NCBI RefSeq assembly: GCF_003334335.1
Contig: NZ_QOWQ01000165.1
Direction: 5' to 3' (one strand)
Length of the DNA: 632 nucleotides
Source of the DNA: Escherichia coli
Lineage (GTDB): Bacteria; Pseudomonadota; Gammaproteobacteria; Enterobacterales; Enterobacteriaceae
The notes beneath the pieces were generated by a model, which was not told the DNA's origin, ran no database searches, and saw only the letters and a program-made list of their open reading frames with translations. Below are positions 1 to 632 of this stretch, in pieces. The translations under genes were made by a program, and so were the position numbers. How positions within the stretch are numbered: the first letter of the stretch is position 1; each line of letters starts with the position of its first letter.

Positions 1-632
1 GAGATTGACAACAGTCAGCTGAAGGACGAGATGGCGGAAATGCAGACCACCATCACAGAAACCCGCAATGAAATCACGCAGACGGTCAGTAAAACGCTGG
101 AAGACCAGAGCGCCACCATACAGCAGATACAGCGCGTGCAGAAGGACACAAATGATGACCTTGCTGCACTTTACATGCTGAAGGTACAGAAAACAAAAAA
201 TGGCATACCCTATGTTGCCGGTATTGGAGCGGGGATTGAGGATACTGATGGCCAGCCCCTGAGCAACATACTGCTGCTGGCTGACCGTATTGCGATGATT
301 AACCCGGAGGACGGCAACACCACGCCGTTATTTGTGGCGCAGGGGAATCAGTTGTTCATGAACGATGTGTTCCTGAAGCGGCTGTTTGCGGTGAGTATCA
401 CCTCGTCCGGCAATCCCCCGACGTTTTCCCTGACGCCGGAGGGCAGGCTGACCGCAAGAAATGCTGATATCAGCGGTAACGTGAATGCGAATTCCGGGAC
501 GCTCAACAACGTCACGATTAACGAGAACTGTCGGGTTCTGGGAAAACTGTCCGCGAACCAGATTGAAGGCGATCTCGTTAAAACAGTGGGCAAAGCTTTC
601 CCCCGGGACTCCCGTGCACCGGAGCGGTGGCC
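1..632 (+). CDS. J: Phage tail tip attachment / host specificity protein J (central tail fibre), internal fragment, partial at both ends; reading frame 1 with first full codon at nt 1, last full codon ending at nt 630
   Basis: Seen in sequence: frame 1 is open for 210 codons with no stop; codon usage is G/C-rich at third positions as in enterobacteria. Recalled homology, not a database search: the translated segment VAGIG...[20 protein letters not shown]...[42 protein letters not shown] closely resembles the corresponding region of lambda gpJ (recalled as ...[59 protein letters not shown]...[43 protein letters not shown]...AAFPRQ), roughly the last third of a ~1100-aa protein. The only competing ORF is a short antisense one. 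Confidence 0.88.

Follow-up and report, generated by a model that had tools for sequence, protein, structure and literature searches.

The 632-nucleotide stretch of Escherichia coli DNA analyzed here, hereafter the window, is best explained as a whole as coding sequence from the interior of gene J in an E. coli prophage of the lambda-like siphovirus kind, a reading to which a probability of about 96% is assigned. The J gene is a mosaic: inside the window, its shaft meets the C-terminal specificity allele that is commonest in E. coli. The identification of the gene faces no contrary evidence; the functional detail is the weaker part. J is an already known and well-studied gene family, and thousands of E. 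coli genomes have the allele carried by the window among their annotations.

Reading frame and gene identity

Frame +1 is open across all 210 codons of the window, and the remaining five frames contain 1-14 stops each. At the base composition of the window (54% G+C), the chance of a particular frame running 210 codons without a stop is ~9e-5. The window translation aligns with residues 829-1012 of lambda gpJ (PDB 8iyk) with an E-value of 1.3e-61. Pfam family PF09327 (Phage_Tail_Tip), which we take to be the former DUF1983, matches window residues 40-167 at model positions 2-138 of 139 (E 9.4e-24), and the NCBIfam profile NF049904 (lambda_TipJ) is matched at positions 834-1041 of 1163 (E 2e-98, 330 bits). 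The window scores below the curated cut-off of the latter family, 1950 bits, because it comprises only 18% of the protein. Membership was judged on the full-length protein, and the 1,156-residue product of a locus 100% identical to the window scored 2318.7 bits over profile positions 1-1163. PHROG tail-fiber families also match the window, with E-values down to 2e-108.

Two other PHROG families, phrog_94 ('head maturation protease', E 7.5e-24) and phrog_15 ('terminase large subunit', E 4.4e-17), match window residues 1-202 near the C-terminal ends of their profiles. Both may contain fused or mis-clustered members, and their family names are thus unreliable for this segment. A weak Pfam Bactofilin match (E 0.012) covers the lower prism repeats (nt 439-567, aa 147-189) and may reflect a beta-solenoid-like repeat pattern, not homology.

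Four E. coli chromosomes carry an annotated gpJ gene of which a part has 100% DNA identity to the window, and phage PhiR5_1, whose record gives E. coli C as the host, matches it at 99.5%. Throughout, the DNA match falls in a gene whose annotation reads tail tip or host specificity protein J. Some match to the window is present in 3,506 of 5,426 complete E. coli genomes, at up to 13 places per genome. The initial annotation had described an uninterrupted 210-codon frame with similarity to lambda gpJ, lying entirely within a lambdoid J gene, and had named J-family or DUF1983-type tail fiber proteins as the alignments to be expected. The stop counts over six frames, the 8iyk, PF09327 and NF049904 alignments, and the complete DNA identity to annotated gpJ bear out these points in turn.

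It is highly improbable that the window hides a further feature such as a gene overlapping J or lying antisense to it, a regulatory RNA, a promoter or a terminator. A minus-strand ORF of 81 residues is present at 348-593 and one antisense frame has a single stop, but the longest open run in a non-coding frame, 109 codons, is shorter than the mean of 151 obtained in 2,000 synonymous-codon shuffles, every one of which reached 109. An Rfam search of the window gave no credible match (best E 0.53), and a search of the window for promoter-like and terminator-like sites was negative. Antisense ORFs, RNA families, promoters and terminators in the window were rejected, none going beyond chance.

Gene neighborhood

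The neighborhood of J was read in the identical locus of NZ_AP022811.1 (L001) and the near-identical locus of PhiR5_1. The J gene of NZ_AP022811.1 comprises 3,471 nt, of which 2,490 lie 5' and 349 lie 3' of the window. Upstream are genes for the major capsid, tail tube-type proteins, the G/T chaperones and the tape measure, and M, L, K (a C40 peptidase) and I; downstream are a gene for an Ail/Lom protein and then the side tail fiber genes. PhiR5_1 and lambda have the same gene order (M-L-K-I-J-lom-stf), and the J of the window shares its gene position and neighbors with lambda gpJ (UniProt P03749; PDB 8iyk, 8xck and 8xcj). The initial annotation had anticipated 2.5-3 kb of 5' and ~0.5 kb of 3' sequence for the full gene, with I/K/L/M upstream and lom/stf-like genes downstream; the lengths found are close to these, and the anticipated genes are seen in the identical and near-identical loci.

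The side tail fiber gene of NZ_AP022811.1 is present as two pseudogene fragments 3' of J (L001:13799-20282 region). These are followed by genes for a DUF4376 protein and a YadA-like adhesin and by a hypothetical gene. Farther 3', an integrase, an exonuclease and dicB/ydfC genes lie in the opposite orientation, and the block from the integrase to dicB/ydfC looks like a second, adjacent lambdoid prophage.

The window contains neither a stop nor a frameshift, and in all four 100%-identical loci gpJ is annotated as coding, with no pseudogene flag. NZ_AP022811.1, the one of these four that was inspected, carries a full-length J of 1,156 residues in a complete head and tail gene set, and the 99.5%-identical copy belongs to the complete deposited PhiR5_1 genome. 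These observations render improbable the alternative that the window comes not from a working gene but from a J remnant that has decayed within a cryptic prophage and lost its function, although such remnants are known (the DLP12 region of E. coli B derivatives contains an N-terminally truncated J pseudogene whose C-terminal type is that of the window), the side tail fiber gene next to J is broken into pieces in the identical locus L001, and E. coli genomes may hold as many as 13 J-like copies.

Domain organization of the encoded segment

The J of the window resembles lambda gpJ in domain order, with hub domains, FNIII domains, the alpha-helical shaft (AHS), the beta-prism and the Ig-like receptor-binding domain (RBD). 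The portions encoded within the window are listed in Table 1. The architecture of helical shaft, beta-prism and Ig-like RBD is supported by alignment to 8iyk, 8xcj and 9wca and by the AlphaFold2 model described below. The solved lambda gpJ and A8 gpJ fibers align with E-values of 1e-61 to 6e-114, the A8 gpJ chimera (PDB 9wca and 9wcb; PMC11338833) being the best PDB match in both sequence and fold (E 6e-114).

Table 1 Features of the 632-nt window. Residue numbers without a prefix are those of the window translation; J denotes the full-length protein.
Feature	Position (nt)	Strand	Evidence
Gene J internal fragment (tip attachment / central tail fiber protein), frame 1, codons 831-1040 of 1,156 (as in NZ_AP022811.1) plus 2 nt	1..632	+	Open frame, DNA identity, family matches
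Lower alpha-helical shaft (AHS), aa 1-56	1..168	+	Alignment to lambda J; lambda AHS boundaries 809-861 (PMC11101478)
Central straight fiber (CSF), trimeric beta-prism, aa 57-189	169..567	+	Lambda alignment, PF09327
Natural recombination junction zone, shaft vs specificity module	440..560	+	20-codon nucleotide-identity bins
First 51 codons of exchangeable C-terminal specificity module	478..632	+	Lambda aa 964 swap point (PMC11338833), coordinate mapping
Start of globular Ig-like receptor-binding domain (RBD)	568..632	+	AlphaFold2 model, fold matches

Pairwise mapping to lambda gpJ places the whole beta-prism CSF within the window. The beta-prism core is 72-78% identical to that of lambda at the protein level, whereas the shaft is only 15-42% identical. 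The window's J is 1,156 residues long versus 1,132 in lambda, and its AHS carries 28 residues (at about aa 3-23 and 27-33) that are absent from lambda and 434. The long form of the AHS is common to phage 21, Stx2 phage 1717, Lys8385Vzw, phage 2851 and an ST131 prophage. Since all five have it, lambda is the short-shaft variant. Window residues 36-56 align with lambda residues 841-861, a helix segment reported to turn into beta-strands upon receptor binding (PMC11101478). The helical periodicity signal of the shaft is weak and strongest at a period of 3.6, and no coiled-coil register is claimed.

An AlphaFold2 monomer model of J 931-1156 served solely to locate where the globular domain starts. 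The model has pLDDT values below 50 for J 931-1019 and a confident globular beta domain at J 1020-1149. The low confidence over J 931-1019 is expected, because the prism fold exists only as a trimer. As the model becomes confident from J ~1020, the RBD begins at about window residue 190 (nt ~568), and PDB chain 8jvm ends at the position equivalent to this start. The RBD portion within the window amounts to ~21 residues and comprises the first beta-strand, LVKTVGK (aa 192-198), and a type-specific loop. The best fold matches of the modelled C-terminal domain are the A8 gpJ fiber in its closed (9wca) and OmpC-bound (9wcb) forms and the lambda gpJ fiber in its closed (8xck) and LamB-bound (8xcj) forms.

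Start of the specificity module

The engineered chimera 'A8 gpJ 713' consists of lambda gpJ up to residue 964 followed by the C-terminus of a gpJ that occurs naturally in an E. coli prophage, and exchange of the region after residue 964 retargeted lambda from LamB to OmpC (PMC11338833). In the alignment, lambda residue 964 is the end of a conserved NADISG motif and corresponds to window residue 159. The specificity module is J 990-1156, equivalent to lambda 965-1132, and starts at window residue 160; thus, 51 of its 167 residues are encoded within the window. The receptor-contacting end of J, 116 residues long, lies just past the window, as do the contact loops. The initial annotation held that the window stops about where the specificity portion begins and that the host-range determinant cannot be assessed here. 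The first statement holds for the 116 receptor-contacting residues, but the module itself starts inside the window; the second stands for the contact loops and falls short in that the 3' end of the window already identifies the C-terminal type.

Mosaic structure of J

Nucleotide identity between the window's J and other J alleles was compared in bins of 20 codons. The J of Lys8385Vzw has the shaft and prism of the window's J, with 83-100% identity up to J 996 and then ~55-65%, and its C-terminus is identical to that of A8. For phage 2851, whose end is 434-like, identity is 87-98% as far as J 976 and falls thereafter. The ST131 prophage exhibits the converse pattern, with only 50-77% identity through J 976 and, from J 997 onward to the C-terminus, 98-100%. 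These shifts of identity place the junctions at window nt ~440-560, and natural mosaicism and the engineered swap point indicate the same place. The ST131-type J combines the same C-terminal module with a shaft like that of phage 21, and the two modules therefore assort independently.

The segments also differ in how widely they occur: of the 5,426 complete E. coli genomes, 805, mostly STEC, contain the shaft segment (nt 1-270), with a median of 4 copies each, 2,754 contain the 3' tip (nt 572-632), and 3,354 contain the 349 nt downstream of the window. The ends of megablast alignments recur at nt 90, 271/280, 530 and 603-606.

Two alleles exhibit short patches of high identity in an otherwise diverged sequence. 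In Stx2 phage 1717 the sole patch spans J 957-976 (window aa 127-146) at 93% identity, and in phage 21 it spans J 997-1016 (window aa 167-186) at 92%. These patches suggest small gene-conversion tracts inside the conserved prism.

Lambda J has been recombined in the laboratory with the J remnant of an E. coli B prophage (10.1101/2020.11.02.365361). The J remnant of an E. coli B derivative (DLP12, ECB_00512-like) bears the same C-terminal type as the window's J, with a few amino-acid differences; its shaft and upper prism, like those of the ST131-type prophage, resemble phage 21 and are only 50-77% identical to the window's J at the nucleotide level. In the B derivative E. coli NEBExpress, the DLP12 region contains, near cusS, a J pseudogene truncated at its N-terminus (L011:2602-4410), whose shaft is phage 21-like and whose C-terminal type is that of the window. 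This pseudogene is similar to ECB_00512, a relict gene that reportedly recombined with lambda J during phage training (10.1101/2020.11.02.365361). In the ST-131 prophage (L010:2279-3362), a truncated lom lies 3' of J, with the transposase gene of the IS21-family element ISEc12 just beyond.

C-terminal type and receptor

Among phage genomes, the C-terminal modules fall into discrete classes of identity to that of the window's J. The class at or above 94% comprises PhiR5_1, several Stx2a phages, JLK-2012 and 2G7b. Phage 21 is ~67% identical, A8 / Lys8385Vzw and Stx1a phages ~63%, and lambda and 434 ~45%. The type to which the window's J belongs is distinct from those of lambda (LamB) and of A8 and 434 (OmpC), and no other J type is as common in E. 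coli, ~62% of complete genomes having it.

The possibility that the window's J is a lambda-type host-specificity protein that binds LamB is unlikely. Its module is only 45.5% identical at the protein level to that of lambda, HK630 and DE3, from which it forms a separate class; beyond J 1017, nucleotide identity to the lambda-type module is 37-63%, and the window's J falls outside the LamB-binding lambda / HK630 / DE3 group. LamB binding should not be assumed for a module of a different type at 45% identity, and the closest typed relative, the A8 / Lys8385Vzw module, binds OmpC (PMC11338833; PDB 9wcb). The likeness to lambda resides in the overall architecture and in the lengths of the RBD loops, which at two indel sites are lambda-like, unlike those of the A8, phage 21 and 434 types, and LamB, like OmpC, is a trimeric porin. 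As the 3' end of the window is unlike that of lambda and matches one widespread type, the receptor is probably not recognized in the manner of lambda and LamB, judging from the sequence.

It is reasonable to suppose that the receptor of the window's C-terminal type is a trimeric outer-membrane porin. The best guess, taken from the nearest typed relative, is OmpC. The A8 / Lys8385Vzw module, however, is ~63% identical at the protein level (~55-65% at the nucleotide level beyond J ~1016) and differs by two RBD indels of 4 and 7 residues, and is too distant for receptor use to be transferred. A more tentative possibility, which we consider to have clearly less than even odds, is that the commonest J type of E. 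coli recognizes a receptor, or a spectrum of porin variants, other than LamB (lambda) and OmpC (434, A8).

No published receptor for this C-terminal class was found in the literature on PhiR5_1, ECOR and long-tailed EHEC phages, and the genome announcement of phages 21 and 434 gives no receptor information. The long-tailed EHEC phage phi330 uses OmpC according to the literature, but its J type could not be connected with that of the window.

Two database records deserve comment. The J of PhiR63_2 (L009:1-1797) diverges from all other alleles inside the RBD and ends early (...VVPPFCFVGVSMKTSTATTNSHTGIQPVSCRY and a stop), and the record contains a second matching place for J, which suggests a frameshift or a split gene. 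MW057783.1, a 48-kb record named 'Campylobacter phage CJLB-4' and given as a phage of Campylobacter jejuni, contains a J whose C-terminus scores as that of lambda does (45.5% identity, with equal E-value and bit score), which suggests a lambda-like sequence under a Campylobacter label.

Proposed mechanism and implications

The domain order and the tip-opening mechanism of lambda gpJ have been described (PMC11101478). By homology to lambda gpJ, a trimer of the window's J would close the tail tip and extend as the central tail fiber. The C-terminal domain would bind a trimeric outer-membrane porin, upon which the three RBDs would spread. New hydrogen bonds may then compact and rotate (twist) the CSF encoded by the window, with the rotation amplified up the prism. 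The AHS would flip and partly refold to strands, the lambda segment concerned, 841-861, being equivalent to window residues 36-56. The FNIII strings would separate and the tail tip would open for DNA ejection, as proposed from the lambda structures (PMC11101478). By this analogy, the window may encode the signal-transmitting part of the fiber.

A fragment of J matters little in itself, J being among the best-studied phage genes. The window does contain the conserved stretch, NADISG...NVTINENC, that is the site of both natural and engineered exchanges of the receptor-binding end. As it spans this stretch, it can be used to type the shaft allele, which is STEC-associated, together with the start of the specificity allele. 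Should the receptor differ from the LamB and OmpC cases, a very widespread determinant of prophage host range awaits assignment. Finding the receptor of so common a specificity type would be a modest but real gain for predicting prophage host range.
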